A stretch of 35,534 nucleotides of DNA from Candidatus Acidiferrum sp. (GTDB taxonomy: Bacteria > Acidobacteriota > Terriglobia > Acidiferrales > UBA7541): positions 1-35,534 of the forward strand of contig JBGQDD010000001.1 of assembly GCA_041495665.1 (NCBI GenBank). Direction: 5' to 3'. A model generated the notes under the pieces. The model did not search any database. It saw only the letters and a list, made by a program, of their open reading frames with translations, and was not told the origin of the DNA. Positions within the stretch are counted from its first letter, which is position 1; every line of letters begins with the position of its first letter. Below, piece by piece: positions 2 through 21,614 of the stretch. The position numbers were made by a program, and so were the translations under genes.

Positions 2-1837
2 TATTCGGTGAACGCTGCGACACAGGATTTGAAACAATTGACGAATCATCCCACGCCCGTCGTGGATTTCGACATAGACCCGAAGTGCGAAGCTGTCGTC
101 TATGCCGCGGCGCCGGGCCCTCCCGATGAGAAGTCCGCGCTGGAAAAGTTCAATCACGGTTTCGCGATCACGATCGAGACGCCGGACAACCTCCCGAGAA
201 CCAAAGCCGAGTTCCAGGAGCCTGACGAAACGCAGGGAGAAGATGTCTTTGTCAAATACCCGGGAGAGAAAGAATCGGCGGTGGTCCTCGCGGATCGGTA
301 CATGCCATTCAAGCCAATTTCCATCGCGCCGGATGGGCGACATGCCGTAATCGCGGTTCTTTTGCGAGAGGTTCCGCCTTCTTGGATTGAGTATGAGGAC
401 GAGTTGATCCGGGCTGAGGTCAAAGCGTTTCGGCGAAAAGGTTCCACGTCCTGGCTGATGCGTTACATGCTCCTCGATCTAAAATCGCGAACGATCAAGG
501 CGTTGCTTTCGGGTCCGGTGGCATGGAGCACGGGCGGTGCAGCGTGGTCGAATGACGGAAAGAGAATTGCCGTATCGGGCGCGTTTCTTCCGCTTGAGGT
601 TGCCGATCCTGCGGAGCGGGAAGCCAGGAAAAAGCATTCATTCGCCGTTGACGTGGACGTAGAAACGGGAAGATTCGAAACGATTACAGACAAAGAACTA
701 GTCGTAACCGGCTGGGACGCAAGATTGAATCGTCTGTACTTCCTCCCCGCTTCGCGCGCGGCCGCGCCTGGTCACATCGTCTACGCAAAGACTTCTTCCG
801 GCTGGACACAAGATTCAAATTCTCACGAGAGTCTCAAGAGCAATTTGCCCGAGGTCACGCTGGAGCAGGATTTGAACACGCCGCCGAAGCTTTATGCGAG
901 CGATACGGCGCATCCGCAGAAAACGCTTCTTCTTGATCTCAACCCGCAGTTCGCGGAGTTCGCATTCGGAAAAGTGGAAAAGATGCTATGGAAAGCCACC
1001 GACGGGCACGAGGTAGAAGGCGGGCTGTATCTGCCGCCCGACTACAAGGAAGGGGTGCAGTATCCTTTGGTCATTCAAACACATGGGTTTTCGGAAACGC
1101 AATTCTGGATCAATGGCCCATGGAACAGCGCGTTCGCGGCACAGCCACTCGCCGCCCACGGTATCGTGGTTTTGCAGGTGGGACACGGAACGGAGCCTGG
1201 CGGTTACATGAAACACCATCGAAGCTTGGAGGAAGCTCCGCGTGAGATGGCCGCGTATGAAGGTGCAATCGACTACCTGGACGGCCGGGGAATCGTAGAC
1301 CGCGAGCGCGTCGGCATTATCGGCTTCAGCCGTACCCAATATCACGTCGAATATGCGCTAACGCATTCCTCGTATCATTTCGCGGCGGCAACGCTGGCGG
1401 ACGGCTTCGAAGGCGGCTACCTGGAGTATCTGCTCGATCCCTACACGGAAAAGGATGCTGTCTTCGTTAACGGCGGGCCGCCGTTTGGCGCGAACTTTTC
1501 CAACTGGTTGGATCACTCGCCTTCCTTCCGCATCGATCGCATCCACTTGCCAGTGAGGGTGGAATGCTACGGAGGAGGAGTGCTCAGCTGCTGGGAGCCG
1601 TTTTCGGTTCTCACGCATCTCAGCCGCCCGGTCGAGCTGATCTATATTCCCGATGGAACACATATCCTCGTAAAACCATGGGAGCGGTTGACTTCGCAAC
1701 AGGGGAACGTGGACTGGTATCGATTTTGGCTGAGGGGTGAGGAGGACGAAGACCATCAGAAACGTGAACAGTGCGAACGCTGGCGTGCCATGCGCGCAAT
1801 TCAGGAACGTGCGGGCAAAGACGCCACGCCTCGATAG
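2..1837 (+). CDS. S9 prolyl-oligopeptidase-family protein, probable lasso peptide isopeptidase (AtxE2-like); 5' end lies outside the window
   Basis: Frame is open to the window edge. It has beta-propeller-like repeats (ISIAPDGRH, AWSNDGKRIA), YPLVIQTHG, nucleophile elbow GIIGFSRT, catalytic His region PDGTH and C-terminal DWYRFWLRGEED. It is adjacent to lasso B/C genes. Confidence 0.85.
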   Translation, partial: YSVNAATQDLKQLTNHPTPVVDFDIDPKCEAVVYAAAPGPPDEKSALEKFNHGFAITIETPDNLPRTKAEFQEPDETQGEDVFVKYPGEKESAVVLADRYMPFKPISIAPDGRHAVIAVLLREVPPSWIEYEDELIRAEVKAFRRKGSTSWLMRYMLLDLKSRTIKALLSGPVAWSTGGAAWSNDGKRIAVSGAFLPLEVADPAEREARKKHSFAVDVDVETGRFETITDKELVVTGWDARLNRLYFLPASRAAAPGHIVYAKTSSGWTQDSNSHESLKSNLPEVTLEQDLNTPPKLYASDTAHPQKTLLLDLNPQFAEFAFGKVEKMLWKATDGHEVEGGLYLPPDYKEGVQYPLVIQTHGFSETQFWINGPWNSAFAAQPLAAHGIVVLQVGHGTEPGGYMKHHRSLEEAPREMAAYEGAIDYLDGRGIVDRERVGIIGFSRTQYHVEYALTHSSYHFAAATLADGFEGGYLEYLLDPYTEKDAVFVNGGPPFGANFSNWLDHSPSFRIDRIHLPVRVECYGGGVLSCWEPFSVLTHLSRPVELIYIPDGTHILVKPWERLTSQQGNVDWYRFWLRGEEDEDHQKREQCERWRAMRAIQERAGKDATPR

Positions 1838-1875
1838 AAAATGCCGGAGCGCCCGTGGCCAGGGAGCGCCCCGGC
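1838..1875 (-). terminator. Intrinsic terminator hairpin between the convergent precursor and isopeptidase genes
   Basis: Minus strand reads GCCGGGGCGCTC-loop-GGGCGCTCCGGC (12-bp stem with 2 G-U pairs) followed by ATTTTCT, starting 7 nt after the precursor stop. Confidence 0.7.
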
Positions 1876-1882: not shown

Positions 1883-2026
1883 TCAATCGTTGGATTCGAA
1901 CACGCCATCAGACGGTGGCAAATGCCCAGGTCTGCTGCTGTCCGCGATCGCTACTTCTTTGGTCATGAGTTGGATCGCCTTGCCGGCGTCATCCACATGA
2001 GTGATTTGCGGTTTCTCGTATTTCAC
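1883..2026 (-). CDS. Lasso-type RiPP precursor peptide, 47 aa: MKYEKPQITHVDDAGKAIQLMTKEVAIADSSRPGHLPPSDGVFESND
   Basis: Translated by hand; below the ORF-track cutoff. GTG start at 2026 (alternative in-frame ATG at 2032), SD AGGAGG at 2040-2035, YxxPxI leader motif, directly downstream of the cyclase and followed by a terminator. Confidence 0.88.
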   Translation of the reverse strand: MKYEKPQITHVDDAGKAIQLMTKEVAIADSSRPGHLPPSDGVFESND

Positions 2027-2080
2027 TGTCATCACCTCCTTTCTTTTTGAATTACCCAGCTGGGATCTTTTTGCGAAGGC

Positions 2081-3994
2081 TCACGCGCTGCCCGCTGCGC
2101 GATGATCCAGAAGAAGTGGATTGGTCCGCATGGGCGAACTCGATTTGAACAGCCCCTGAACGGCCGCATCCTGCATCCACCATTCGAGCCGGAGCGCTCG
2201 CATTGCGGGAAGCAGCGGAACATCTCCACCGTGACGCGCTTGTTCGAGCGTCTCGCGAAAAATGTTGGAATCGAGCGTGTGGCTCGATTCGAGCATCATC
2301 GTCTCCGTTAAGTTCATGATTCGCCGCCAGTCCGCGGCCACCGCCTTGAGATGACTGGTCGCGACGAATGCTTTGCGAGGACGGTCGAGTACGACATCGG
2401 GCACGATTCCCCGCAAGGCACGACGGAACAGGGAGCGGCGCTGGTTCGGTCGCACCAGTTGTTCTCGCGGGATGTTGAACAGGAATTCGAGCAGGTCCCG
2501 GTCGAGAAAGGGGTAGCGCTTTTCACAGCATGGCGCAGGTGGAAGTTCCGCGCACGCAATCTGGCGCCGGAGTCCGTCCAGCGCGCGGAGATTTTCCTGA
2601 AACGTTGGCAGCGGTCCACGCCAGCGGAATCGTGTCACGGCGATGCTCAGGGTTTTCTGATTGCGGCGCGCGAAGGACGGCGTCAGCCACGGCATCGGCC
2701 ATTGTCTGCTGGTATTGGTGGCTCGCATGGTGGGGAGGAAAGTCCGAATCGACTTTCCGGCGACGTGAAGTAGAGGCTTTCGCGAAGCCATGGCCCAGAG
2801 GAAGGCGCGGCGCAGGAACTGGCGGAATTCTGCGCGGCTCAACAAGTCGGCAAGTTCCGGAATTCCTGTGGGTGCTCCGCCCGTGAATTCGTCTCCACCG
2901 CTGCCTGAGAGGAGAACCTGAAAATTCCCTTCCGTGATGTGCCGCGCCAATCGGACTTGGGAATCGGTTGGCCGGCCGCCGTGGGCCGGAGTCACGGGGA
3001 AGGAACCGCCCCGTTGTGGAAGGAGAAGCCCGTCACTTGCAACGTCGAGATGAAAACCCGTGCGGCCGCGGTGCACCTCAACGGCGGTAAAGAATGGTCG
3101 CTCATTCCAATTGGGTTCACTGTCGTCGAAATACGAAACCGTCTCAACCGGCCGCACACCTCGATTTGCGGCCACATGGTCGGCTGTGCAAACGATCGCT
3201 GAGGAATCCATGCCGCCGCTGAGTTGTGCCAGTACCGGAGAGCGGGACCGCAGGCGGCGATGTACCGCGTCGAAAAAAAGAACGCGAAAGCGCTTTTCGT
3301 ACTCGGCGTCGGATTTGCATGGAGATTCCTCAAGAGGGTGAAAATCCCAGTATTTCTCAACGGTTGCTGTGCGGCTCGTGATTCTTACCAGTGACGCGGG
3401 TGGAACCGCTCGGATTTCTTCATACGGTGTGAGATGCGCTTCGGGATAGCCAGCGAGCCAACCGGCGATGTACTCCTCGCAGAGTGTGAAGCGCTCCTCC
3501 GGGCAAAGGAGCAACGGTTCGAGAACGGTTGACCAGGCAATGTAGCGATTGTTTCGGAGGTAGTAGAGGGGACGCGATCCCAGGAAATCCCTCGCAAGAA
3601 TCAATGTCCGTTCGTAGTGATTCAAAACACTCAGAGACCAGTCGCCGACGAGGCTCCCCAGGCAGAGCGTGGCTTCCTTCTCCCAGGACTCGGCGACGAT
3701 TTCGAGATCAGATGGGTTGGAAGAACGGCAGGCCAGTCTCGGAAGAAGTTCCGCCCGGTTGTCCAACCGGCCGTCCCATGTGAGGAAGGTTCCCGCCGGG
3801 GAAATGGCCGGTTGCTGTTCGCGGCGCGATTCATCCGTGACATGCAGCGCCCCATAGAGAATTGCGAACGTGCTTTTCACGCAGATCGTCACGCCGTCCG
3901 GTGAATGCGCGTCGAGCATCGCGCGAACCTTGCCGATGTACTCGGGGTCGACCGCCTTGCCGTCGTAATTCCATCTGCCAAACAAAATGCTCAT
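2081..3994 (-). CDS. Lasso peptide cyclase (C protein), asparagine synthetase-like
   Basis: ATP-binding SGGMDSS, LSGSGGDE, ARDFLGSRPLYY, YPFLDRDL and RPRK motifs. The N-terminus MSILFG lacks the glutaminase Cys of true AsnB. SD GGAGG at 4005-4001 supports ATG 3994. Confidence 0.9.
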   Translation of the reverse strand: MSILFGRWNYDGKAVDPEYIGKVRAMLDAHSPDGVTICVKSTFAILYGALHVTDESRREQQPAISPAGTFLTWDGRLDNRAELLPRLACRSSNPSDLEIVAESWEKEATLCLGSLVGDWSLSVLNHYERTLILARDFLGSRPLYYLRNNRYIAWSTVLEPLLLCPEERFTLCEEYIAGWLAGYPEAHLTPYEEIRAVPPASLVRITSRTATVEKYWDFHPLEESPCKSDAEYEKRFRVLFFDAVHRRLRSRSPVLAQLSGGMDSSAIVCTADHVAANRGVRPVETVSYFDDSEPNWNERPFFTAVEVHRGRTGFHLDVASDGLLLPQRGGSFPVTPAHGGRPTDSQVRLARHITEGNFQVLLSGSGGDEFTGGAPTGIPELADLLSRAEFRQFLRRAFLWAMASRKPLLHVAGKSIRTFLPTMRATNTSRQWPMPWLTPSFARRNQKTLSIAVTRFRWRGPLPTFQENLRALDGLRRQIACAELPPAPCCEKRYPFLDRDLLEFLFNIPREQLVRPNQRRSLFRRALRGIVPDVVLDRPRKAFVATSHLKAVAADWRRIMNLTETMMLESSHTLDSNIFRETLEQARHGGDVPLLPAMRALRLEWWMQDAAVQGLFKSSSPMRTNPLLLDHRAAGSA

Positions 3995-4016
3995 AACCAA
4001 CCTCCCGCGCGCCCAT

Positions 4017-4421
4017 TCAACAGCGATCCATCACCCCGTAGATTTCTGCGATGTAAGGTTTGTCGTTCGCGATCCGGCCCTCCACTTCGACCCAGGCATG
4101 GGCACGGAACGGCCACTGCTGAACTCCGATCACCATCTCCGCGGGGATTCCGTACTCGCGCAACAGGCAGGTTGTCGCCGCAGACCGCTGGAGACAGAGC
4201 ACCTCCTTGAAATAGAGGACGCAGGCAACATCGACCGCTCGGCAGACATCCTCGGCTGTTCGCGAAGTCTTGGGATTTCCGTTCCGCTCACGATTCTTCA
4301 CCCGCGCGTGGACAGCAGCGAATCCTCGGGAGGCGAGCTGGATGTCGACGCGGAGCAGTTCGACGTAGGCGCGCGGCAAAAGCGGATATTTCAATTCCTT
4401 CACTCGATGGGTCAGGAACAT
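4017..4421 (-). CDS. Lasso peptide leader peptidase (B2, transglutaminase-like)
   Basis: CLQRS (catalytic Cys), VIGV...PFRAHAWVE (His), and ND. Likely start is ATG 4421, overlapping the kinase stop. Confidence 0.92.
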   Translation of the reverse strand: MFLTHRVKELKYPLLPRAYVELLRVDIQLASRGFAAVHARVKNRERNGNPKTSRTAEDVCRAVDVACVLYFKEVLCLQRSAATTCLLREYGIPAEMVIGVQQWPFRAHAWVEVEGRIANDKPYIAEIYGVMDRC

Positions 4422-5815
4422 GATCGCGCCCCAGCTTTCGATTCTGTGAATCTGACGAGCTCCCGCTTCAACCTTCGGAGAAGAGCGCGCAGATAGTCGG
4501 TGAATCGCGGGCTGCCCAGCCCGTATGGCTCGGCGGCGAGTAGGCAACGCTGCGCGTAGGCGAAAACTGCGAGTGCGGGCGAGACTGTCCATGTTTCGCG
4601 GACATGGTTTGAAGGTGCCGAGCGTTCCCACGCAGTCAGGTACGCCTCAACCACGGAATGTTCCTCAGGAGAGTGACGGCCAAATGCACGCCCAAATGAT
4701 TGAAGAAGGTACTCGAGAGTCAGGAACGGAGGACCGATGTAGGTTTCGGCCCAGTCCAGATAGACGCAGTGCTCGGAAGACACAACCGCATTGCCGGCGT
4801 TCAAATCCAGATGTCCGAGTGCATCGGGGATGCCGGAGTTCTCCGCTTGGATGAGCAACTCCAGAACCTTGGCTTTCATGGCCGGCAAGTCGGTCAACGA
4901 TAGTTCGGGCGCCGTCGTGCCAATGCTCTGCTGAGTCAGCGTTTCGGCTACCGTAAAAAACCGATTGACCACAGGCAGCGAGAACAGCGTCTTCAAATCG
5001 TGGGCACCGGCGCGGAGCAACTCCCCGGCTCCTGCCGCCGATGCAATCTGCAGTTCGGCCAGCGTGCGGGAGGCTTTGCGCCAGAGTTCGATTTCCTTGA
5101 TTTCGTTCAGCGAACGGCTTAAGCATTCCTCCGCTAACCAAGCGTTCCACTTGGGACGGACCACGAGCAGTCGTGGCACAAACTCGGAGTAGCGCTTCGC
5201 CAGTTCCTGCGTGATGCGAAACTCGCGAGTGTTCGGATCGCCGACCGCCTTGAACCAGAGGGGTCGGGGTTTCGTTTCGAAGCGGATCAAGCTAAACGAA
5301 GCACTCGCCTGAAATTGGGTGAAACCGTGTTCCCACTCGAACGAGAACGGAGCGATGGCTTCCCGGAGCCACGCGGCGAGTTCGTCAAACCAGCCAAGGT
5401 GTCCGAAGGGCGTGTCCTTGTTTGCGGAACTGGAGAGGGTTGCGAGGAAAGCGCGGAGCGCATTGTGATCTTCCGCATCGGGGAACAATTCCGGCGTCAG
5501 CGCTGAAATGCTCATCCACCGCAGACCGCGCGGAAGGGGTGCGTTTGCAGTTAGCGGCTCCACGACGTGGTATTGGACGACGGCGTCTCCGTTCAAAGAA
5601 GCGCTGGTCTCCACCGGAATAATCGAAATCACATCGAGGTTCCAATTGCGCCTTACCTCGGCGTTCAAGTGCCACGCCACCCGCTGATGCTGGGGGATGT
5701 TGACTTCGGGCAGGGAGAGATTGTTTGACTCCTCGAAGATGACGATTTCGGAAGCACTTTTGTTAGGAATGATGACGCGCCATCGATCTGTCTGGGTTGG
5801 GTGTGGTTGCGGCAT
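4412..5815 (-). CDS. APH/choline-kinase-like phosphotransferase with an N-terminal, possibly degenerate Nudix-like domain; putative RiPP kinase
   Basis: WFKAV (ATP-binding Lys), REFRIT (alphaC Glu), HLDLNAGN (HxDxxxxN catalytic loop) and YLDWAE (Mg-binding). It sits between B1 and B2, with a 15-bp gap upstream and a 10-bp overlap downstream. Confidence 0.78.
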   Translation of the reverse strand: MPQPHPTQTDRWRVIIPNKSASEIVIFEESNNLSLPEVNIPQHQRVAWHLNAEVRRNWNLDVISIIPVETSASLNGDAVVQYHVVEPLTANAPLPRGLRWMSISALTPELFPDAEDHNALRAFLATLSSSANKDTPFGHLGWFDELAAWLREAIAPFSFEWEHGFTQFQASASFSLIRFETKPRPLWFKAVGDPNTREFRITQELAKRYSEFVPRLLVVRPKWNAWLAEECLSRSLNEIKEIELWRKASRTLAELQIASAAGAGELLRAGAHDLKTLFSLPVVNRFFTVAETLTQQSIGTTAPELSLTDLPAMKAKVLELLIQAENSGIPDALGHLDLNAGNAVVSSEHCVYLDWAETYIGPPFLTLEYLLQSFGRAFGRHSPEEHSVVEAYLTAWERSAPSNHVRETWTVSPALAVFAYAQRCLLAAEPYGLGSPRFTDYLRALLRRLKRELVRFTESKAGARSCS

Positions 5816-5830: not shown

Positions 5831-6097
5831 TCAGTCGGCGTTCTGGCGGTAAAGCAAATCGTTACTTGCAAGCACGTTGAGGAAGTCCTGCACGTCGCGG
5901 GATGCGCGGGCAGGTGCAATTCCGCAGCGAGTGCTGATATCGGCGATGATTTGTTCTTCTTCGTAGCCGCGAACGAGGAGTTCGAAGATGGTTGCGCCGG
6001 TGGCGTTGAGCCGGAAGATTTTACCTTTCCGAAGATCGAGAACCACGCCGCCGTCTGCGTTGGTTACGGTTCTCAGATTCTCGGACAGTCGGACCAT
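5831..6097 (-). CDS. PqqD-family RiPP recognition element (lasso B1)
   Basis: 88 aa from ATG 6097: DGGVVLDLRKGKIFRLNATGATIFELL...DVQDFLNVLASNDLL, the typical RRE pattern. Confidence 0.92.
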   Translation of the reverse strand: MVRLSENLRTVTNADGGVVLDLRKGKIFRLNATGATIFELLVRGYEEEQIIADISTRCGIAPARASRDVQDFLNVLASNDLLYRQNAD

Positions 6098-6307
6098 GGA
6101 AGGACTCACCGTTGCTAGTGTTCTGCTGACCCGACGTTGCCACGCGGCAGCCTCGGAAGCCACTCAGTCACACAAGTGTTCGCGATTGTTCTGCGCTGCG
6201 ATGAGACGCGGACGATCATTGAGGAATTTGCGTATTCTGAATTGACTGTAAAGTCTTGGGCGTTCGTCTTTGTGACTTTGTTGTGGGTCCGCGACAATCC
6301 CGGCTAA

Positions 6308-7897
6308 TCACGGCAACCGGCGAACGATGCCGACTATCTGACCTACGACCTCCGCATCGGTGCGATTACGGAGACGCAGCAGCTTGGGCAGGCCGGCTGT
6401 AAAGGGCTGAATCGCCAAGATGCCATTCATGCGCACGCACGAACCGCACAGGTAACTGCCCTCACGGCGCAGAAAAACGTAGAGTGGCTGCGCCCACTTC
6501 GGGCACGTGAGAGAGGAGCGGGGTACCTTTTTCTTGCGATCCACAACCAGAAAGACAGCGCCTTTCAAGTACGGGTGGATGAAACGTTCCATACCGCCTG
6601 ACCAGAAAATGTCTCGAATGGAAAGGTCCGGCATGCCAAAGAAGCTGGGCATCACTCCAAACAAAAAATACGGAAGCTCCCGGAATCGACGTGCAAGCTC
6701 CGTCATGAAAAGCGACTGGCTCGCGGCGATGTCGATCTTGCCCTCTGGTTCCGAGTCGCCCAAGAAATGCGGCGGCATGGGGAGTTCGCCAGCACTAGCG
6801 AGTGGCACCCCCGCGGCTTCAAGACACTCCGCGGCGCTCGCATAGTACGCGGCGCAAATCGAAATCAGTTTGTGTACGTGCCGTGGCGCGGTTTTCCAAG
6901 TTTCATAGTCGGAGAGGGAGCCTGGGGCGCAAAAATAGCGCGCGTCGCGAAGTATTCGCGCTATCACTCGCGTTCTCTTGGAAGCCTCCCGGAAGGAAAG
7001 CCCGGAACGCCTTCGCGCCCGGCGAATAAATTCGCCGACGTTGCCCGTGGGTAATCCTGGCGGCAGGGCAAGTGGCTTCCAGTAACCGCCGAGACTTCTC
7101 GGAACAACGGGATTTTCGGATTTCGCCGTTCTGCGAAATTCCATGTCAGCAGTCCCCACCAGCGCCACCTGGGTTCCAAGCTCCAATTCCGCTGAGGAGT
7201 ACGGCAGATGTTTCGAGCACAGGAGGATACGATTACGTTCCGGTCGAAAGATTCGAGAGCACAGGTAACCACGGCCGTGTTCGACAAGAAACAGATTCTT
7301 GCCAGCCGTCTTACCATAAGGAATCTTCAAGTGCCGTTTGGAAGACGGATTCACCCGCACAATGCTGCCGGGAAGAAGGTCGGGAAACGAGAAGGCGTCC
7401 CGTGAGCCGATCTTGACGAACCGGAACGGAAGTCTTGTCGCCCGCGAGATGGCATCTGCGGGACGACTCCGTGCGGAGGACAACCACTGGCCGAGCGGGG
7501 TGAGGGGAGCGTCAAAGACACCCGGTGCCAGGTCCTGGAACATGGGAATGCGATCGTGGGAGTGGTAAATCCCCGCGTCCAACTCAACCGTGCGCAACGC
7601 AGGGAAGAAGATTTGGAACCGAAGAACGTCGCGGAGCGAGAAGCCGAACAGTCGAAGCCAATCGACGAACCGGTAGCCGGAGAGAAGACTCAGGGCAGCG
7701 ATTTGATACAGGCTCGGACTGAACTGACGCTTGCGGATAACGCCGTAAAGGTTATGCGGAACGTGATGGAGCGGGCCATACGGAGCACCCGACCGCGACA
7801 TTCGCGCCACATCCGCGAGAGAAAGTCCGCGCTGCGCAAGCAGCAAACGAATCGTTTCGACGAGAACAGAAGCTGACCTGAAGGATGTGATTGGCAT
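6308..7897 (-). CDS. Tandem-duplicated transcriptional regulator: 2 x (XRE-like HTH + degenerate S24/LexA-like C-terminal domain)
   Basis: HTH1 is QRGLSLADVARMS and HTH2 is RRRSGLSFREASKRT. The C-domains contain FPDLLPGSIVRV...YLCSR and HPYL...YLCGSC...DAEVVGQIVGIVRRL; both resemble 8090-8878. Confidence 0.7.
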   Translation of the reverse strand: MPITSFRSASVLVETIRLLLAQRGLSLADVARMSRSGAPYGPLHHVPHNLYGVIRKRQFSPSLYQIAALSLLSGYRFVDWLRLFGFSLRDVLRFQIFFPALRTVELDAGIYHSHDRIPMFQDLAPGVFDAPLTPLGQWLSSARSRPADAISRATRLPFRFVKIGSRDAFSFPDLLPGSIVRVNPSSKRHLKIPYGKTAGKNLFLVEHGRGYLCSRIFRPERNRILLCSKHLPYSSAELELGTQVALVGTADMEFRRTAKSENPVVPRSLGGYWKPLALPPGLPTGNVGEFIRRARRRSGLSFREASKRTRVIARILRDARYFCAPGSLSDYETWKTAPRHVHKLISICAAYYASAAECLEAAGVPLASAGELPMPPHFLGDSEPEGKIDIAASQSLFMTELARRFRELPYFLFGVMPSFFGMPDLSIRDIFWSGGMERFIHPYLKGAVFLVVDRKKKVPRSSLTCPKWAQPLYVFLRREGSYLCGSCVRMNGILAIQPFTAGLPKLLRLRNRTDAEVVGQIVGIVRRLP

Positions 7898-8089: not shown

Positions 8090-8878
8090 ATGCAAGAGAA
8101 CGGGGAAACTCTACAGGCGGGCCTTCGACTGAAGCAGTTGCGGGTGCGTCTGGGGCTTACCCTGCGTGCGGTTGAAGATCTCAGCCGCCGTCTCGCCGCA
8201 GAAAAACAGAATCAGGATTTTTTCATCTCGCGCGGATGGCTGAACAATGTTGAGAATGGCTCCAACACGCCGAGTCTTTTCAAGCTGTATTCGTTGGGGG
8301 CGATTTACCACACGCACTGGTCGAGTATCTTCTCCTTCTTCGGATTGAACCTCAGCGAATTTGGCCGGGACCAAGCGATGTTTGCGCCGCCCAAAACGCA
8401 GCTCGTTGTCGAGCCGGAGCCGAAGAATGACGATACTGTCGTTTTGCCTCTGCGATCACCCGAGAACATCAAACTCGACAAGACGAACCTTCTTTCACGC
8501 TTAGTGGAAATCTGGGGGGAGGTTCCGATCCGCATGCTCCAGCACCTGGACCTTCGGAAGAGCGTGTATGGGTTTATTGGCATGTCCGATTTCACGATGT
8601 TTCCAATTCTAAGGCCCGGCTCCATCGTACAGATTGACGGAAATCAGCGAAAGATTTCACCGGTGAAGTGGCAAAACGAACATGACCGCCCAATCTATTT
8701 CATCGAACTTCGCGGGGAGTTCCTTTGCAGTTGGTGCGAGGTCCGCGAAGGCCACTTACTGGCGGTGCCTTATCCGAATTCCATGTGTGAGATCCGGCGA
8801 TTTGTCTATCCGCGGGATGCGGAGATCGTTGGCCGCGTGACAGGCGTAGCCATGCGCCTCGCTGAATCGCAACCTTGA
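8090..8878 (+). CDS. XRE-family HTH regulator with degenerate S24/LexA-like C-terminal domain
   Basis: LKQLRVRLGLTLRAVE...ISRGWLNNVENGSNTPSL HTH, followed by DFTMFPILRPGSIVQID...FLCSWC...DAEIVGRVTGV. Confidence 0.8.
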   Translation: MQENGETLQAGLRLKQLRVRLGLTLRAVEDLSRRLAAEKQNQDFFISRGWLNNVENGSNTPSLFKLYSLGAIYHTHWSSIFSFFGLNLSEFGRDQAMFAPPKTQLVVEPEPKNDDTVVLPLRSPENIKLDKTNLLSRLVEIWGEVPIRMLQHLDLRKSVYGFIGMSDFTMFPILRPGSIVQIDGNQRKISPVKWQNEHDRPIYFIELRGEFLCSWCEVREGHLLAVPYPNSMCEIRRFVYPRDAEIVGRVTGVAMRLAESQP

Positions 8879-9016: not shown

Positions 9017-9415
9017 ATGATTATTGGAGATCGTTTGCGGGAGTTGCGGGAAGGAAAGACTCTCTCACAAGGAGACATCGAGAAGAGAACCGGGCTGCTG
9101 CGATGCTACATATCGCGCGTCGAGAATGGCCACACGGTCCCTGCCATCGAGACCTTGGAGAAATTGGCGCGAGCTCTCGAAGTCCCGATGTACCAGCTGT
9201 TCTATGACGGCGAAGAGCCACCCAAGCTGCCGAACCTTCTGAAACGGAAGACGTCAGACGAGATGGTATGGGGGAGTTCGGGCAAACAAGCGGTGTACTT
9301 GCACAAACTCGTAAAGTGCCTGAGCAAAGCGACAGACTCGGACCGAAAGCTTTTGCTGTCCCTGGCCCAGAAGGTCGCAACAGGCCGTAACCGACGAACT
9401 TCGACCGCAGCATAG
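9017..9415 (+). CDS. XRE-family HTH transcriptional regulator
   Basis: IGDRLRELREGKTLSQGDIEKRTGLLRCYISRVENGHTVPAIETLEKLARALEV; GAGG SD upstream. Confidence 0.92.
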   Translation: MIIGDRLRELREGKTLSQGDIEKRTGLLRCYISRVENGHTVPAIETLEKLARALEVPMYQLFYDGEEPPKLPNLLKRKTSDEMVWGSSGKQAVYLHKLVKCLSKATDSDRKLLLSLAQKVATGRNRRTSTAA

Positions 9416-9421
9416 AATGAA

Positions 9422-9450
9422 AGCGGGCCGCGCCTGTGACGTGGCCCGCT
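9422..9450. terminator. Hairpin between the convergent XRE and parB-like genes
   Basis: AGCGGGCCGCG-N7-CGTGGCCCGCT, an 11-bp stem with one G-U pair. Confidence 0.6.
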
Positions 9451-9474
9451 CCAAACAGCGGACAGGTGTTGTTA

Positions 9475-11115
9475 TTACCGCTTCGCGGAAGCTACACGCT
9501 TCGGCAGATTCTTCCCGGATTTTTCCTTCTTCGAAAGCTCGGTCCATACTTCCGCCGCGAGTTTCGCGGTGTCAATTTTGTAGCGGATGGCTGTGCGAGC
9601 GAGGTTGGAGTCTTTCGCAAGTGCCTGCCGAGGGTTGTATCCCGGGCAGTACAGGTCGGACACGAGCGCGCAAACGACGAGGAAGTGCTGGACTCCCTGC
9701 CTAGTCATTTCACGCACGGCCTTTCCGGCGATGGTCTGGTAGTCCACGGTGCCGCCGCCCCACGAGGCTTTGGTCTTTTTCTTATCCCATCCGTACACGC
9801 GGCAGAGGCGGCGGTGATTGTCATGGCCAAGCCGCTCGAAATAGTCGAGCGCGGCCATGTCGAGGTCCGGGCGCGACAGCGTCGCCGGGAGTTTCTTGCG
9901 GATGGCGTTTAGAGTACGAGCGCGTGTCAGTTTTTCGATGCGTTCTGCCAGGACTTCCTTCGCCCGTGCCGCTCGTTCCTGCGGCGTGGGCTGGTAGCGT
10001 GTGACGCGAGCGTGGACTGCGCAGTTTTCATCGCGGCACACATGGAAGAGTTTCCCCGCATCCGGGCCGTCGATCACAACGGCGGGTTTGGTCTGCGGGC
10101 ACTCCGCCTTTTTCTGCGCTTTGCGATATTGCCCTTCGTAGAGGACGTCCGGTTTCCGGCTCTTGTCCTGCCACGCCGGGGCTTGCGAAACGCGGAGTGG
10201 TTTCTCGCCTGACTTTTCCAGCGGCTTCACGCGAATCTGCACGAGCGCCTCGACCTTGGCGCGATAGCATTGGCGGTCGGTACAGATGGATTTCTGCCGC
10301 ACTTCGGGAAAGAGGAGAGGATTGTTCCCCGTCCGTTTTGGGCAGCGTGCGCAACTTCCTGCTGGAGGAAGTAGGCTTTCGTCCTGCGGGTCAAATGGCG
10401 CGTTCGTAAGGTCCAGATGAATTTCCCGCTGAATCCACTCGCGGAGTTCCCGTACGGTGACCGCTTCGGCTTTGTGGTCTTTGGCAATGGCCGCCGCTGT
10501 CCGGTGATGCGGAAAGCATTCCTGCAGAGCGCGGCGCTGGTCGTTGGACTGGAGACGCGCGATTTCAAACGCATGCGCGACGGTCAGCTTCGCGGCGTAG
10601 AAAGCCTGCTGCACTTCCTCGACAAGATGGGTCAGACGCAGACGGGCATAGACGTATTTTTCAGACCGTCCGATTTTCTCGGCGAGAACTTCGACGGTAT
10701 AGGTTTCCGGTTGCAGTTGCATCAGGGCCGCGTAGCCCCGCGCCTCGTCGAGTTCGTGCACGTCGGCGCGTTGTAGGTTCTCGATGAGTTGCAGTTCGAG
10801 GCATTGCGTGTCGGTGAGTTCGCGGACGCTCGCGGGAATGGTTTCCCGCTCTGCCATTCGAGAGGCACGGTAGCGCCGCGCTCCGGCGACGAGTTCAAAA
10901 AAGCCATCCTCGCCGCCCGGCAAAGGGCGGACGAGAACGGGCTGCAGGACGCCGTGCTGGCGGATGTTGTCCGCCAGTTCGGCGAGCTTGGTCTCGTCAA
11001 ACTGGCGTCTTGGATTCGTCCTCGATTCGTGAATGTTTGTGAGCGGTATGTCCTGTACTGAGGACACACCCTGCGGGACTATTTTGTTTGCGTTCACTGC
11101 GACTGCGGTATTCAT
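9475..11115 (-). CDS. ParB/RepB/Spo0J-family protein of mobile-element type, with Cys-rich C-terminal extension
   Basis: NPRRQFDE...GVLQPVLVR...LVAGARRYRA...LQLIENLQRADV; HTH LAEKIGRSEKYVYARLRL; CARC...CTDRQC and CPQ...CRDENC motifs. Confidence 0.9.
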   Translation of the reverse strand: MNTAVAVNANKIVPQGVSSVQDIPLTNIHESRTNPRRQFDETKLAELADNIRQHGVLQPVLVRPLPGGEDGFFELVAGARRYRASRMAERETIPASVRELTDTQCLELQLIENLQRADVHELDEARGYAALMQLQPETYTVEVLAEKIGRSEKYVYARLRLTHLVEEVQQAFYAAKLTVAHAFEIARLQSNDQRRALQECFPHHRTAAAIAKDHKAEAVTVRELREWIQREIHLDLTNAPFDPQDESLLPPAGSCARCPKRTGNNPLLFPEVRQKSICTDRQCYRAKVEALVQIRVKPLEKSGEKPLRVSQAPAWQDKSRKPDVLYEGQYRKAQKKAECPQTKPAVVIDGPDAGKLFHVCRDENCAVHARVTRYQPTPQERAARAKEVLAERIEKLTRARTLNAIRKKLPATLSRPDLDMAALDYFERLGHDNHRRLCRVYGWDKKKTKASWGGGTVDYQTIAGKAVREMTRQGVQHFLVVCALVSDLYCPGYNPRQALAKDSNLARTAIRYKIDTAKLAAEVWTELSKKEKSGKNLPKRVASAKR

Positions 11116-11148
11116 TTTCGATTTCTCCTTTTTCTATCTTTTTTCGAA

Positions 11149-11439
11149 TCAATACTCATCGGGAAGCAGAAGGGTGGTGTGGGAGCGGTTGGCTTCAGTG
11201 ATGATCCAGATTTTGTCGTTGGCGGTGGTGCGGTAGCTGCTCATGAGCCGGAAGCCCTTCTCCAAGCTGAGCTGGTTTTCGGCCTTGTCTTCTTCGGGAA
11301 GGTTGCCCCAATCGCCCGTCACATGGCGTGAGAGAAACTCCATGGGTGTCTGTCCGGATTTTTCGAGTGCGGCCAGCGCACCGGGTGTAGCGACGAGCTG
11401 GCCCAGGTCAAACAACGGTTTTCGTTCTGTCTTTTGCAT
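11149..11439 (-). CDS. Small conserved plasmid/ICE-associated hypothetical protein (96 aa)
   Basis: LFDLGQLVATPGA...RHVTGDWG...IWIITEANRSHTTLLLPDEY pattern; AAGGAG SD before ATG 11439. Confidence 0.8.
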   Translation of the reverse strand: MQKTERKPLFDLGQLVATPGALAALEKSGQTPMEFLSRHVTGDWGNLPEEDKAENQLSLEKGFRLMSSYRTTANDKIWIITEANRSHTTLLLPDEY

Positions 11440-11536
11440 TTCTGAAATCTCCTTCTTGTGGATTTGGCTTTTGCTTTCCAAGAGGCGCGGCGGTGAGCCG
11501 CGCATGAAAAGCAAATGCCCTTCATGGCGGGGGAAG

Positions 11537-11629
11537 GCGCCTGTCCGTCCGCGCTGTCAAGGCCGCGGGGTGGGCGTTCATCGGAGCGAAGCGCAGAGCC
11601 TTGACAGAAGAAACGGACGGACCAGGCGC
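11537..11629. promoter_or_regulatory. Long imperfect hairpin with TTGACA in the stem (Frpo/ssi-like ssDNA element)
   Basis: Nested inverted repeats GCGCCTG/CAGGCGC, TCCGTCCG/CGGACGGA and CTGTCAAGGC/GCCTTGACAG, upstream of the small protein-parB operon. Confidence 0.6.
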
Positions 11630-11825
11630 AGGGTTTGGCCAGGAAGGGCAATTGCACAGAATCTGCCGAAACGGACACCACGGCTGTTGCGTTCTTACAG
11701 CCTTTGGACTCGGTGGCAATGATTCCGCAAGCAGCGTTTGCAGAATTGAGTGGGACGAGTGAAGTGTCTATTGTCGATGCAATGCGGCCTGAATCGGGGT
11801 AGCGGTGACGTTTGGTTCGTGCGGG

Positions 11826-12416
11826 CTAGGAGCGAGAGAATCTGAGGAGCGGCTCGAAGTTACCTTGGTCGGCGGCGCGCAGAGCGGCGAGATAGGCTTC
11901 CCGCGCTTCCCCGGGGACGATGATGTCCTTGCTGCCCCACGGAAAAACCTGGCGTCCGTTTTTCACCGCGATGATGTCAGCGATCAGGCGCGCATGTCTG
12001 CCGTTTCCGTTGGGAAACGCGTGAATGACCACCAGCTCATAGTGAAAGCGGACAGCACACTCATCCACGTCGTATGTCTTGTTCTTCAGCCAGTACGCGG
12101 CATTGCCCAGGAGCTGCGCGAGCCTCTCGTGAATGTCAGCCACCGGGACGCCGAGATTTTTTTCCGTCTTGCGATACGTGCCCGCCCACTTCCACGTTTG
12201 GTCGAACATGCGCCGGTGGAGTTCCCGCACGTAGTCTTCTTGGATTGGTTCCGACCGTGCTAACTGGCGGTCTGCAAGCGCCCATTGCCGGGCTCTCAGG
12301 ATGTTATCGCGCTCCCATTCGTTCAGTTCTTCGCGAGTGGCCAAACTGGGAATGAGATCGGCCTGCTCCTCGGGACTGAGAGGAGTATTGGCAGCGGGAG
12401 GTGGGTCGTGAGGCAT
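11826..12416 (-). CDS. Mobile mystery protein B (Fic domain)
   Basis: TPLSPEEQADLIP...ELNEWERDNI, WKWAGTYRKT and Fic motif HAFPNGNGRHAR; paired with an HTH gene. Confidence 0.9.
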   Translation of the reverse strand: MPHDPPPAANTPLSPEEQADLIPSLATREELNEWERDNILRARQWALADRQLARSEPIQEDYVRELHRRMFDQTWKWAGTYRKTEKNLGVPVADIHERLAQLLGNAAYWLKNKTYDVDECAVRFHYELVVIHAFPNGNGRHARLIADIIAVKNGRQVFPWGSKDIIVPGEAREAYLAALRAADQGNFEPLLRFSRS

Positions 12417-12429
12417 GTGAAGGTTCTTC

Positions 12430-12870
12430 TTAACGCTTCTTCAACAAGCGCTTGGTCTCGCGATTGATCTTGTCCTGGAGTCCATACGCGGCCTGGTCTT
12501 CCAGTGCCATCGTGTGTTCGACCGCGCGCACATCCCTCTCGGCCGTGTGGCGAGCCCGCTTTTCGGCCAGTTGTCTAAGCGATCCGGCCTTGGGCACGAT
12601 GGCATACACGAGCTCGCAGTCCATCGTTTCGGCATAGTGCTGCAGAGTTTGTAGGGTGATCCGATTGGCGGCCTCGGACTTTTCGAACGAGGCTACCGTT
12701 TGGGGAGTCTTGTGCATTTTGCGCGCGACTTCGCGCATACTGATGCCAAGGGCTTCCCGAACGGAGCGGAGCCAGCCGCGTCGCGGCCGGGTGACGGCCG
12801 CAGTTCCTGCGAATGGTTCCAGGCTGCGATCGATTTGATGGAGCCGCAAGTCGCGAAACTCGGAGTTCAT
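12430..12870 (-). CDS. Mobile mystery protein A (XRE HTH)
   Basis: PRRGWLRSVREALGIS...ITLQTL...MDCELVYAIVP...VEHTMALEDQ. Confidence 0.9.
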   Translation of the reverse strand: MNSEFRDLRLHQIDRSLEPFAGTAAVTRPRRGWLRSVREALGISMREVARKMHKTPQTVASFEKSEAANRITLQTLQHYAETMDCELVYAIVPKAGSLRQLAEKRARHTAERDVRAVEHTMALEDQAAYGLQDKINRETKRLLKKR

Positions 12871-12915
12871 AACCCGTTCCCCCTCTACGAGTATAACCTG
12901 TCATGACCCTCAATG

Positions 12916-12965
12916 AAACAGCGTATATACTGATGTACGTAACAACAAAACAGCGTATATACTGA
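12916..12965. repeat. Perfect 18-bp direct repeat (x2) upstream of mobile mystery protein A; candidate operator
   Basis: AAACAGCGTATATACTGA at 12916-12933 and 12948-12965 (32-bp period), each with palindromic core GTATATAC. Confidence 0.75.
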
Positions 12966-13032
12966 CGACGGCATCGCGGTCGCAATCATAGAGCATTCCG
13001 TTCCGGCCATCTGACCAATAAGACGGAGCAGG

Positions 13033-13113
13033 GAGATTATTGCTCCCGGATTGTTCCGGGCGAGCGACGCGTCGAGCTTTGTTAGCGGGCAAGAACTTGT
13101 CGTTGAGGGGGCC
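13033..13113 (+). pseudogene. Remnant of the C-terminus of an SDR-family oxidoreductase
   Basis: LFRASDASSFVSGQELVVEG resembles the SDR tail LFLASDxSSxxTGxxLxVDGG; no N-terminal part is present. Confidence 0.55.
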
Positions 13114-13886
13114 AACGGTGGCGGCTGGAAGTGGACGGAGATGCTCAACCTTTGGGACGAGGCAAGGCGGCGGATTACAGCGTCCGGAGCAGCGGGGCAA
13201 GTCTTCGGAAGAAACAACTGCCGGACCGGTGCAAATCTGAGATGAGTTCTGGTTTGTGGCGAGGCTAGGCTATTAGACCTTTCGGTTCACTACCGAAAGA
13301 TTTGCCAGGTCAAATCGCGTCCGCTGCCTGAGGAGTCGATCAGTTAGAGACTTCCAGATGACTCGGTCGGCGTCCAACAATTGTTGCCGCGAATCACCAA
13401 AGTCACTTTCTGCAGCCGCGCTAGGATGAGGAAGTAGGAGGTTTCCGCGGCCGCATGCAAAACGAGGTTCCTAAATGATAAAAGTACGCCTAATACTTTC
13501 GAAGAAATAAAACTATGACTGCTCAGCTAGATAGGACGTGAAGTCGCTGGGGAAAGGGCCGAAACATGGAAGAGGACTACTGCAGCGGTCTCAGGTGCTA
13601 TCCGATACATTCGCACTGTTGCTGGTGCGTCGTAGACCCAATAGGCTGTCAGCCCTCGCACTCTCTTTTCCCTCCTTTCCTGATTTCAGGGAAGCCATTG
13701 CAGAGGATCAAGTATTTAGTTAAGCTTTTGCCAAAATGAAGCAACATACCTTGGATTTACAATATCCTTTCCGTGCAACATCCGACCCGATGCATGAGAT
13801 GTTGGTACTTACGATGCCCTGATCATCAAATCCGCGGGCCATGCGTCATGTTGGCTCGTGAATGAGTGCACTCAAGAGGATTGGCC

Positions 13887-14068
13887 ATGCTGAAGAAAAC
13901 GGCGCGACACATAATTGTGGTTGCCCTAATCCTATTGGTAGTTGTCCTGTGGATACGAAACCGGGACAGCACGCAAAAAATAGGGACTATCACAATCGGG
14001 GCAATTCTCCCCATGACAGGAAGCGCCGCCAACTATGGCGAACTCATGAGTAGAGGAATCACCATGGC
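13887..14068 (+). pseudogene. 5' fragment of a branched-chain amino acid ABC substrate-binding protein (LivJ/LivK-like)
   Basis: GAGGA SD, N-terminal TM/signal segment, then ITIGAILPMTGSAANYGELMSRGITMA; runs into antisense abiEii sequence. Confidence 0.7.
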
Positions 14069-14623
14069 TTCGAACTTTTCAGCGAGGACCGTCTCCCGGG
14101 GATAGGTCAGCAACCGGGGACCGGGAAAATCCAGCAGCGTGGGATAGGCGCCCTCGACTGGCTCGGGAGTGATGGCATCGCCGAAACCGATGTCGATTTG
14201 AATCGGGATCTTCGCCCGGTCGAGATATGCGGTGAGGGTCAGGCGGACGCCTTCGTAGTCCGCATCTTCGGTGATGCGCTCGGCGGCAACGGTGTCGCTA
14301 TCGAAGCGGAGGCCATCGGGTTCTACGTCCATCGCACAGATTTCCCGGAAGATTTGAACGAAGCGGTTCGGGGAGTTGTCCCCGCGGGCGAGAAAGTCGG
14401 CATCCCGGGTAGGGCGGTATCGCTGTTCGGTCCAAAGTTCAAACAGAAGCGCGCCCTTTAAGAGGAAAACGTCCCGATGCGGAGAGCGGCTGAGACGGAA
14501 GAGTATCCGCTCGAGACCGTATTTGACGAGGATCAAGCCGAAATCCGCGTCGCGCTCGCGGGCGAGATTGCGCAGTTTCTGGCGGACAGAGGCGGGAATG
14601 TTTTTCGGAGATGGGTTGGCCAA
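14033..14623 (-). pseudogene. abiEii: AbiEii-family nucleotidyltransferase toxin, C-terminally truncated
   Basis: YGLERILFRL, FLLKGALLF, RPTRDADFL, IQIDIGFGD and YPRETVLAEKFEAMV, then an abrupt end that lacks the downstream R-x-KD-x-YD motif. TTG start. Confidence 0.8.
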
Positions 14624-15223
14624 TTAGAGCGACTCCAGATAGGGACGCATGACGTTGGCGACGCGGCATACTTGGGCAGCGGCCCAGAGTTCGTCCATCG
14701 TTGCTTTCTTGGTACGTCGGGATTCCTTGAGCGCTTCGATGGCGACGTCGAGGCCAATCTTATTCCGGAACTTGAAACAGTCGGCAACGGTTTTTGCTGG
14801 ACTGAACACGCGGAGAGCAGCGCCGGAAAACGTGTATTCCTTCACCCCGTAGTGAAGGGCTGGTCCGGACATGCGCACGAGGCGAATCGGTGGAGCGGAA
14901 ACTTTGGGAGCCCAGGCCTTTTGGCCGATGGCCATCCAAACCTCGTGCGGAGACTGGGTGGTGAAGTTGTGAAAGCGGAGGGCGGAGAGCAGACAGACGA
15001 CTCCCTTGGGAACTCGATAGGCAGCCTCGATGAGCGTGAGATGCTCAGTACCCGAGAAGTCCGGGGAGGTATAGAGGCCGCGGCCGACTTTTTCGAGGAC
15101 GCCTTTGCGAACCAGGCGCGTGAAATAGTTTCGCGGAATGCCCAGGGCACTGGCATCTTTGGTGCGCACGATCTGGCGCTTCTTCGCAAGCTGAAGGAGC
15201 TTGTCGGTCTTAGGACTTGGCAT
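14624..15223 (-). CDS. abiEi: AbiEi-family type IV TA antitoxin / transcriptional regulator
   Basis: N-terminal wHTH (LEKVGRGLY), GVVCLLSALRFH and AKTVADCFKFRNKIGLDVAIEALK; abuts abiEii. Confidence 0.9.
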   Translation of the reverse strand: MPSPKTDKLLQLAKKRQIVRTKDASALGIPRNYFTRLVRKGVLEKVGRGLYTSPDFSGTEHLTLIEAAYRVPKGVVCLLSALRFHNFTTQSPHEVWMAIGQKAWAPKVSAPPIRLVRMSGPALHYGVKEYTFSGAALRVFSPAKTVADCFKFRNKIGLDVAIEALKESRRTKKATMDELWAAAQVCRVANVMRPYLESL

Positions 15224-19292: not shown

Positions 19293-20078
19293 ATGCCGCG
19301 AGGACAGGTGGACCACAGAGAGCAGCGGCTGAGAGTCTTGTTAGCGCGCCAAGAGATCACCGGCGCAGACCGGCAGTGGGCCGAGCAATACGAGCCGGGC
19401 GATGTCGTGCGCTACGCAAAGGGAAGCAAAACATACGGCATCGAGGCCGGAGAATACGCGCGCGTCGAGCGAGTGAACGCGAAGGAAAATGTGGTGACTG
19501 TCGGAAAGCAGAACGGTGAGCACGTCAGCTACGACCCTCGCCGCCTGCGAGGGGTGACGCTGTATCGAGATGCGGAACGCGCGTTCTCACAAGGCGACCG
19601 CGTCCAGTTTACTGCGTCGAACCGCGGGCAACACATTGCGAACCGCGAACTAGGGACCATTGAGAAGATCGACGTGACCGGCAACCTGCAATTGCGCCTG
19701 GACTCAGGCCGTTCCGTTTCGTTCGACGCCAAGGAGAATCCGCATCTTGACTACGGCTATGCCGTAACAAGCCACAGCAGCCAGGGACAGACCGCCGACC
19801 GCGTGCTCATCCACGTAGACACCGAGAGGGCAGGAGAAAAACTCGTGAATCGGCGCTTGGCATACGTGGCGGTGTCCCGTGGCCGCTACGACGCGCAGCT
19901 CTACACCAACGACAAGACCCACCTTGCCGGGGCTCTGAGCCGCGAGGTCTCGCATCAATCTGCAACGGAACCGACGCGCGCAGCAGGGCCAGCGCTCGCA
20001 CAAAAGACCGAGCCGCCCTCTTCTCTGACTCAGGAGAGACAGCGAACAATCGAACGAGATCTCAGCCCTAGCCGGTAG
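19293..20078 (+). pseudogene. C-terminal helicase part of a MOBF/TrwC-TraI-type relaxase (N-terminus missing)
   Basis: SF1B motifs LDYGYAVTSHSSQGQTADRV and LAYVAVSRGR, plus GDRVQFT. No HUH relaxase domain or Walker A upstream. Confidence 0.8.
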
Positions 20079-20128
20079 GCACGCTACTCGCTCCCACGGT
20101 CTTATCGGGTCCGCACGTCTTTGTCCCC

Positions 20129-20310
20129 ACATGCTTTACTCGGCGCAAGATAGGCCGTAGTTCGCTCCCACTGTAAAGCCCGCTTGTGCAGCTCCGCTCG
20201 GTATACCCCCAACCGTGCTCGCTTCCGCGCCCCTCCGGGCTGCGCTGAAATGCGCTTCGAAGCTTGACAGCCGCGAACCACGGCCAGAACCCGCCTCCAG
20301 TAAAGCATGT
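20129..20310. promoter_or_regulatory. Long nested hairpin with TTGACA in the 3' arm, upstream of ardC (Frpo/ssi-like)
   Basis: ACATGCTTTACT/AGTAAAGCATGT (12/12), GGCCGTAGTTCGC/GCGAACCACGGCC (12/13) and CTGTAAAGC/GCTTGACAG (8/9). Confidence 0.65.
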
Positions 20311-20366
20311 TGTTTTCTATGCCCTGAAAGGGCCTAGAAACACTAACTCACACTGGAGCGAACACA

Positions 20367-21239: not shown

Positions 21240-21246
21240 GCGGCTC

Positions 21247-21275
21247 TTGACAATGGTATCGTATGTGTTACCATT
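21247..21275 (+). promoter_or_regulatory. Promoter/operator of the TA pair, probably leaderless
   Basis: TTGACA (21247)-16 nt-TACCAT (21269) with TGn; AATGGTA-N10-TACCATT inverted repeat; ATG 5 nt after the -10 and no SD. Confidence 0.7.
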
Positions 21276-21279
21276 ATCC

Positions 21280-21609: not shown

Positions 21610-21614
21610 CTACA

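Follow-up and report, generated by a model that had tools for sequence, protein, structure and literature searches.

A predicted lysine-to-aspartate side-chain ring in a lasso-like peptide from Candidatus Acidiferrum and its Acidobacteriota relatives

Results

A precursor gene ends a lasso-like gene cluster

The window, by which we mean the whole 35,534-nt stretch of Candidatus Acidiferrum DNA analysed here, begins with an isopeptidase gene whose 5' end is lost at the contig edge. Converging on it is a co-directional run of genes for B1, an APH-like kinase, B2 and a cyclase C, with the short precursor gene A in last place. The features of this locus are listed below.

2..1837, plus: AtxE2-like isopeptidase (NF033523, E 1.4e-46, below cut-off; best PDB match 5txc, AtxE2, E 1.6e-29)
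1843..1875, minus: GC-rich hairpin, possible terminator, between the convergent A and isopeptidase genes
1883..2026, minus: precursor gene A, 47 aa, GTG start (ORF and family comparison)
1886..1900, minus: C-terminal motif F43-D47, a relaxed form of the family Y-E-A-D-E end (family comparison)
1886..1969, minus: predicted core, 28 aa, L20-D47 (placed by the leader-motif register)
1910..1912, minus: Ser39, predicted phosphorylation site, 4 residues before the conserved aromatic (conservation)
1940..1942, minus: Asp29 (core Asp10), predicted ring acceptor, Lys+6 (ortholog and family conservation)
1958..1960, minus: Lys23 (core Lys4), predicted ring nucleophile (ortholog and family conservation)
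1970..2026, minus: leader, residues 1-19, with Y3-x-x-P6-x-I8, A14, I18(-2) and Q19(-1) (leader motif)
2035..2040, minus: Shine-Dalgarno sequence AGGAGG, 8 nt 5' of the GTG, identical in L022 (sequence)
2081..4000, minus: lasso cyclase homolog C (NF033535, E 2.5e-72, below its cut-off; PF00733)
4017..4631, minus: leader peptidase B2, longest ORF (NF033537, above cut-off)
4412..5815, minus: APH-family kinase (PF01636, E 3.2e-4, below cut-off)
5831..6163, minus: RRE / PqqD-like B1 (PF05402, E 2e-14; NF033530, E 9e-15)
6308..7897, minus, and 8090..8878, plus: divergent XRE-type regulator pair (PF13560; co-occurrence)

Gene A is read on the minus strand from a GTG at 2026 to a stop at 1885-1883, and the 47-residue translation given in a preliminary description of this DNA was borne out. 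That description had also credited the gene with a strong Shine-Dalgarno sequence and a terminator of its own. The former stands, the AGGAGG being well placed for the GTG and only 2 nt from an in-frame ATG at 2032; the case for the latter is weaker, since a terminator scan returned 0 sites and the plausible hairpin 3' of the stop (12 bp and a short U-rich tail, 1875-1843) folds no better than shuffled sequence (z -0.77; 43/200 shuffles equally good). Because a 49-residue database entry, P0123, begins at ATG 2032, the gene had already been called elsewhere. Pfam and NCBIfam scans gave no match for precursor A. It has 12 database orthologs at 70-98% identity, and its own genome holds 53 short ORFs led by a Shine-Dalgarno sequence and bearing a YxxPxL-like motif, among which gene A alone (1/53) carries the family pattern described below. 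Gene A is more than a chance ORF.

Alignment of the cyclase reveals an Asn-synthetase fold with SGGMDS and GGDE motifs intact and the N-terminal Cys absent. Its AlphaFold model (pLDDT 74.8) and a fold search, which matched AsnB/TsnB9 and returned no solved lasso cyclase among its matches, confirm solely the predicted Asn-synthetase fold. A loop at residues 290-300 (Y-x-D-x-x-E-P-N-W-N-E) is specific to the family and differs from four canonical cyclases; these are the only comparators, they are distant and phylogeny may explain the difference, and the loop was not counted as evidence on the nucleophile. The true start of B2 is probably the ATG at 4421. Its triad (C146, H178 and D190) is conserved in at least 90% of 42 homologs, as are H335, D337, N342 and D354 of the kinase in at least 90% of 27. 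Homologs of the isopeptidase begin with a hydrophobic, signal-like stretch, as judged by eye, and in L022 and most relatives the next gene after the isopeptidase encodes a TonB-dependent receptor; here the contig ends earlier. The XRE-type regulator pair lies upstream of many family loci. No exporter gene was found in the 35,534-nt window, and the genome is 70% complete. The leader motif and the adjoining B1, kinase, B2 and C genes support the original view of the 47-residue peptide as the precursor of this cluster, whose B1, kinase, B2 and cyclase genes are all intact.

Beyond the regulators, a domain scan of 9017-15223 identified an XRE regulator, a ParB-domain protein, a Fic protein and an HTH protein, and these are followed by two genes whose translations resemble an AbiEi/AbiEii module; the lasso cluster thus borders a probable mobile island. 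Judging by their translations, ORFs at 19293-22001 resemble a relaxase fragment, an ArdC-like protein and a toxin-antitoxin pair, and 23065-35534 is presumably a polysaccharide cluster with glycosyltransferases and rml-like genes.

Canonical lasso genes occur elsewhere in the same genome. One fragment (L152:1-805, on contig G000:C106) holds a cyclase end, a precursor with Thr(-2) and Asp9, and an HPr-kinase-like gene; because this precursor lies directly behind its own cyclase and beside the HPr-kinase-like gene, it belongs to a separate system. The discovery of a canonical precursor elsewhere for the cluster had been named in the preliminary description as grounds for abandoning its proposal, and the precursor on C106 gives none. 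A second candidate canonical precursor is present on contig C268, a B1/B2 pair on C19 (L153:2590-3340) and another cyclase on C403 (L154:1582-3537).

Gene A has many relatives in Acidobacteriota

A cyclase search of 151 genomes gave matches in 19, of which 14 fall among the 90 same-genus genomes, and a scan of a genome collection with the cyclase gave 37 loci. These include the nearest named relative, L022, from a Candidatus Acidiferrum MAG, whose cyclase is 90% identical to that of the window, so that the host is probably a soil-dwelling member of the Acidobacteriota. Short ORFs near the cyclases, led by a Shine-Dalgarno sequence and matching M-x-Y-x-x-P-x-[ILVFM], came to 65 copies and 57 unique precursors (the locus set); the Y/P/L-type leader residues are part of this pattern, and their family-wide presence is by construction. 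With the exception of L022, the cores of this set are 20-38% identical to that of the window precursor. At E <= 1e-4, a profile built on 49 of these precursors had matches in 2,783 protein clusters; the best 120 of these, less three already in the locus set, form a set of 117. A metagenome scan with the cyclase alignment gave 485 loci, the best 80 of which yielded 94 further unique precursors. Close orthologs (n=14) comprise the window peptide, the 12 database orthologs and L022, and four distant canonical clusters of the same taxonomic class (L016-L019), with longer leaders and missed by the search pattern, served as controls. By comparison with these sets, gene A is placed in a large Acidobacteriota family.

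The leader register points to a cut at Q19|L20

With Y3, P6 and I8 at -17, -14 and -12, the cut falls at Q19|L20, Ile18 takes position -2 and the nearest core acids are Glu5 and Asp10, just as the preliminary description had it. When precursors are registered on Tyr at -17, position -2 is Ile or Val in 55/57 of the locus set, in 117/117 of the profile matches (best 120 of 2,783) and in 89/94 of the metagenome precursors (best 80 of 485 loci); Thr at -2 occurs in none of the 57 and none of the 94 (best 80 of 485 loci). Among the locus precursors, -1 is Gln in 46/57 and -6 is Ala in 51/57. In the same register the four canonical controls have Thr(-2) and an acid at core 8, and the separate canonical precursor of this genome has Thr(-2) and Asp9. 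For BsfA, cleavage two residues after an Ile at this register has been shown experimentally (PMC10368454). Because the family -2/-1 register, the canonical controls and the cleavage of BsfA agree, a B2 cut at Q19|L20 is well founded and, by this comparison and analogy, the most likely one, as originally supposed. The presence of Ile at -2 had been taken as a break with lasso rules; it is already known and not new, as it was shown for BsfA, and Ile/Val(-2) was reported in silico for Acidobacteriaceae precursors (Duan et al. 2023, PMC10368454). The alternative of Thr22 as -2 was rejected because that position varies (T/S/Q) among the 14 close orthologs.

The predicted ring acid follows an early lysine

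Core positions 7-9 of the window peptide are Ala-Ile-Ala and contain no acid acceptor of the canonical kind, which upholds the statement that a 7-9-residue ring from the L20 N-terminus is impossible. An acid at core 7-9 is found in 11/57 of the locus set, 20/117 of the profile matches (best 120 of 2,783) and 18/94 of the metagenome precursors (best 80 of 485 loci). A Lys within the first 8-9 core positions, with Asp or Glu at +6 to +8, is present in 57/57 of the locus set, in 117/117 of the profile matches (best 120 of 2,783, chosen by a profile that includes the Asp column) and in 94/94 of the metagenome precursors (best 80 of 485 loci, chosen regardless of core). Shuffles of the variable core with the Lys fixed, which overstate significance because the relatives share ancestry, gave a mean of 18.6 and a maximum of 31/57 in 5000 for the locus set, a mean of 36.4 and a maximum of 53 for the 117 (best 120 of 2,783), and a mean of 26.5 and a maximum of 41 in 2000 for the 94 (best 80 of 485 loci; run on the 93 with a tail anchor). 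The first 21 loci had already suggested the +6/+7 rule when the later sets were examined, and +8 was taken from the canonical ring range.

Across the locus and metagenome sets (the latter from the best 80 of 485 loci) the Lys lies at core 3-8 and the acid at core 9-16. The standard deviation of the Lys-acid distance is 0.66, against 1.51 for the position of the acid (53 precursors), and a rule-free test of first Lys against first acid from position 7 gives a rho of 0.52. These comparisons indicate that the ring acid tracks the Lys and not the cut site. Conservation is lacking at the two positions that precede the Lys, and the arm in front of it is 2-7 residues long; a single Lys is present in 35/53 cores, and 0/53 are without a Lys in positions 1-8. 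In the 14 close orthologs the invariant core residues are M21, K23, I27, D29, P37, P38, S39, G41, V42, E44 and D47, while T22 (T/S/Q), G34 (G/Q/D/N/S), D40 (D/A/S/T) and E24 (once Gln) vary. Glu24 was on this account rejected as the acceptor, and a 7-residue ring from Gly34 to Asp40, one of the options first listed, was rejected because both residues vary. Another of those options, the Lys4-Asp10 side-chain link, is favored by the relatives through the Lys-acid rule in all three sets, and comparative support for the Lys23-Asp29 pair is strong. The alignment of short ORFs near homologous cyclases, suggested at the outset as a check, showed Ile/Val(-2) and Gln(-1) to be mostly kept, the Lys and the acid always, and the acidic tail to be relaxed in the type to which the window belongs.

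Rings closed through the Lys N-epsilon at +6 and +7 would contain 26 and 29 atoms, and canonical 7-9-residue rings contain 22-29. Members with the acid at +8 (6/57 by first pair; 8/94 from the best 80 of 485 loci) would need rings of 32 atoms, more than in any natural lasso ring described in the review consulted (PMC13352647). For the window peptide, calculated monoisotopic masses are 2968.42 Da for the linear core L20-D47, 2950.41 Da for the ring with its arm (the same for a 10-residue N-terminal ring), 3030.38 Da with a phosphate added and 2605.24 Da for a ring beginning at Lys23.

Three locus architectures and the conserved tail

By gene content, type I loci have a kinase, a prolyl oligopeptidase (triad intact, no signal peptide) and one cyclase; type II loci, the window included, are without the oligopeptidase; and type III loci have two cyclases and neither kinase nor oligopeptidase. 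A Ser or Thr four residues before the tail aromatic is found in 27/30 type I, 10/10 type II and 3/13 type III precursors of the locus set, and in 50/50, 13/13 and 4/22 of the metagenome set (best 80 of 485 loci), where types were assigned by script on often truncated contigs, eight precursors have no assigned type and some type I kinases are out of view. Types I and II together thus have 37/40 and 63/63 (the latter from the best 80 of 485 loci), versus 3/13 and 4/22 in the kinase-less type III. The exact Y-E-[AG]-D-E end occurs in 28/30 and 40/50 of type I and in 0/10 and 0/13 of type II, and an acid five residues before the aromatic in 13/13 and 16/22 of type III and in 1/40 and 2/63 of types I and II, the second figure of each pair coming from the best 80 of 485 loci. 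A tree of 88 cyclases, its deep nodes weakly supported, gives type II about seven origins and type III a single one.

From these counts and the tree, Ser39 is the likely target of the kinase. The exact tail, relaxed in the window locus, is likely what the oligopeptidase reads, because the exact end is found in type I and in no type II precursor and type II has arisen repeatedly. The type III links, of a second cyclase with Glu five before the Tyr and with a D-W-E end, come from one clade and therefore amount to one event.

Several features of individual loci were also observed. In the type III loci L039, L041-L045, L047-L051, L053 and L056 two tandem cyclases occupy the B2-to-A interval, and the precursors end Y-x-D-W-E with an acid five residues before the Tyr. 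The second cyclase frequently has no Asp in its GGDE motif and diverges in the 293-304 loop; because several lack this Asp, the second cyclases may be inactive partners. The type III Glu may simply mimic phospho-Thr. A GT4 glycosyltransferase (PF00534) in or beside the type III clusters L042 (3721-5376), L043, L047 and L051 makes peptide glycosylation possible there. In L029 (3543-5579) and other type I loci, the oligopeptidase gene is flanked by those for the kinase and B2, and its presence goes with the exact Y-E-A-D-E end; the enzyme may remove the tail or macrocyclise. L080 is a hybrid, with two cyclase matches, an oligopeptidase and three precursors ending Y-E-D-G/A-E. Two cysteines in the cores of L004, L006, L101, L124, P0083, P0110 and P0113, frequently with the first in the arm or ring and the second beyond the acid, suggest disulfide-bridged variants. 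In L035, L041, L044 and L056 the cyclase or other cluster genes lie in pieces across frames, through decay or assembly error.

Comparison with known peptide systems

The Bsf cluster of Bradymonas sediminis resembles the window locus in its YxxPxL register, Ile/Val(-2), split B1/B2 and cluster kinase (PMC10368454). It differs in that BsfA has Gly1 and Asp8 for a canonical ring, whereas no acid lies at core 7-9 here, and in that BsfK is HPr-kinase-like and acts on core Ser3 (PMC10368454), whereas the window encodes an APH-like kinase whose predicted site is close to the tail. The Acidobacteriaceae precursors in that study may belong to the family described here; the main text, alignment figures aside, does not discuss their ring (PMC10368454). 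The clusters of AtxE2 (astexin) and sphingopyxin share a convergent S9 isopeptidase and, in relatives, a TonB-dependent receptor, and their peptides have canonical N-terminal rings (PMC9266682, PMC13352647). By comparison, the window locus has XRE-type regulators, and many of its relatives also encode an ABC exporter, a kinase and a prolyl oligopeptidase or a second cyclase.

A Lys side chain in an isopeptide bond is also a feature of the class V lasso peptides lariocidin B and gelatinamin A (PMC13178200, PMC11451635). There, a clostripain-like transpeptidase joins Lys2 to the C-terminus as a second ring atop an N-terminus-Asp8 ring (PMC13178200), whereas in the present peptide the cyclase itself would form the first ring, by linking the Lys to the side chain of an Asp. 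Pfam and NCBIfam scans identified no clostripain-like gene among the cluster ORFs of the window, and the core offers no canonical acceptor. Nor does the locus follow the paeninodin/Bsf type, in which an HPr-kinase-like enzyme modifies the C-terminal Ser or core Ser3, as its kinase matches APH, its C-terminal residue is Asp and core position 3 is T/S/Q in orthologs. Graspetides such as microviridin contain Lys-to-Asp/Glu side-chain amides made by ATP-grasp ligases; no ATP-grasp match was found among the scanned cluster proteins or the conserved gene families of the loci. The locus shares with canonical lasso clusters the grouping of A, B1 plus B2 and C with intact motifs, and a leader with Y(-17), P(-14) and I(-12). 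The pathway is lasso-like but the acceptor rule fails, and we therefore set the peptide apart from canonical lasso peptides.

Discussion

We propose that B2 cuts at Q19|L20 and that the cyclase joins the side-chain amine of Lys23 to Asp29, so that a Leu-Met-Thr arm stays free; we give this reading a probability of about 0.68. In the pathway envisaged, B1 would bind the leader at Y3-x-x-P6-x-I8, the kinase would phosphorylate Ser39, B2 would cleave after Ile18-Gln19, and the cyclase would adenylate Asp29 for attack by the Lys23 N-epsilon. The product would be a 7-residue, 26-atom lactam with the free arm on one side and an 18-residue tail on the other; the tail is probably threaded through the ring, with Phe43 a candidate steric plug. 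The exported isopeptidase and the TonB-dependent receptor known from relatives would import the peptide and open its ring again, along the lines proposed for astexin-type clusters. Closure through the epsilon-amine would be new chemistry for lasso cyclases, since in the reviews consulted every lasso ring is closed by the N-terminus. A full-text literature search, in which subscription papers were mostly outside reach and most matches were judged by abstract, found no paper on a lasso cyclase closing its first ring through Lys, and the portion consulted of a 2026 review describes lasso cyclases with attack by the N-terminus and rings of 7-9, with no mention of 'Acidobacter' (PMC13352647).

The main rival, absent from the preliminary description, is that the Leu-Met-Thr arm is trimmed, by a B2 with a preference for Lys at P1' or by an unlinked peptidase, and that the alpha-amine of Lys23 then closes a canonical 7-residue ring on Asp29. 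This would keep the cyclase chemistry unchanged and spare the +8 members their 32-atom rings; the Lys-to-acid spans of 7, 8 or 9 residues are exactly the canonical set (PMC13352647), and type I loci do contain a cytoplasmic prolyl oligopeptidase with its Ser-Asp-His triad intact. We nevertheless consider it unlikely. No single peptidase able to expose the Lys occurs across all loci: types II and III, the window locus among them, lack the oligopeptidase, to which the best matches in the window's own genome are 25% identical, and isopeptidase homologs have the signal-like N-terminus noted above. The residues before the Lys are unconserved in an arm of varying length, trimming would give no reason for the Ile/Val-Gln site at the -17 register, and the arm is never lost, with Lys never the ring partner at core 1-2 in the 57 and 94 precursors (the latter from the best 80 of 485 loci).

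A 10-residue ring from the Leu20 alpha-amine to Asp29, with Lys23 kept for recognition, a salt bridge or later modification, was among the options first put forward. It would use the known nucleophile, the fusilassin enzymes tolerate engineered rings of 7-10 (PMC13352647) and in class V lassos a Lys of the ring takes part in a second cross-link (PMC13178200). We hold it to be improbable because the acid ranges over core 9-16 across the family, and even within one locus, L025, is found at 10 in one precursor and at 15 in another; it moves with the Lys, changes of ring size are usually poorly tolerated (PMC13352647), and core position 1 varies among Leu, Val and Glu in close orthologs. Improbable too, in our estimate, is an acceptor at Glu24, Asp40 or the acidic C-terminal end, or a linear phosphopeptide with no ring. 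In favor of such readings, close orthologs never vary at E44 or D47, and within the core conservation is highest at the Y-E-x-D-E end; against this, Asp40, Gly34 and Glu24 vary as set out above, and because the distance from ring acid to aromatic ranges over 9-18 residues, the Lys is not spaced to the tail. A linear product would also sit poorly with the intact cyclase motifs and with an isopeptidase retained beside the cyclase.

Analogy with astexin-type systems suggests a threaded product with a role in signalling or as cargo more than as an antibiotic; astexin-type peptides are mostly without antibiotic activity, and their isopeptidases are reported to need threaded substrates (PMC9266682). 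More tentatively, and we regard this as possible but doubtful, a threaded Lys-Asp side-chain lactam would free the N-terminus for a second closure, and the family would be a new and widespread RiPP class made by lasso-like enzymes. Its relatives would then be locked bicycles, closed by the oligopeptidase on the exact A-Y-E-A-D-E end in type I and by the duplicated cyclase on the Glu five residues before the Tyr in type III, and the window locus would be the simplest, single-ring member.

The family offers hundreds of natural substrates and three enzyme sets, which makes the choice of nucleophile and ring size by the cyclase directly testable. If the proposal is true, it would provide rings that are threaded yet lie within a chain whose two ends are free, as wanted for fusing lassos to proteins, and it would account for the thousands of Acidobacteriota precursors to which rule-based mining assigns no ring.
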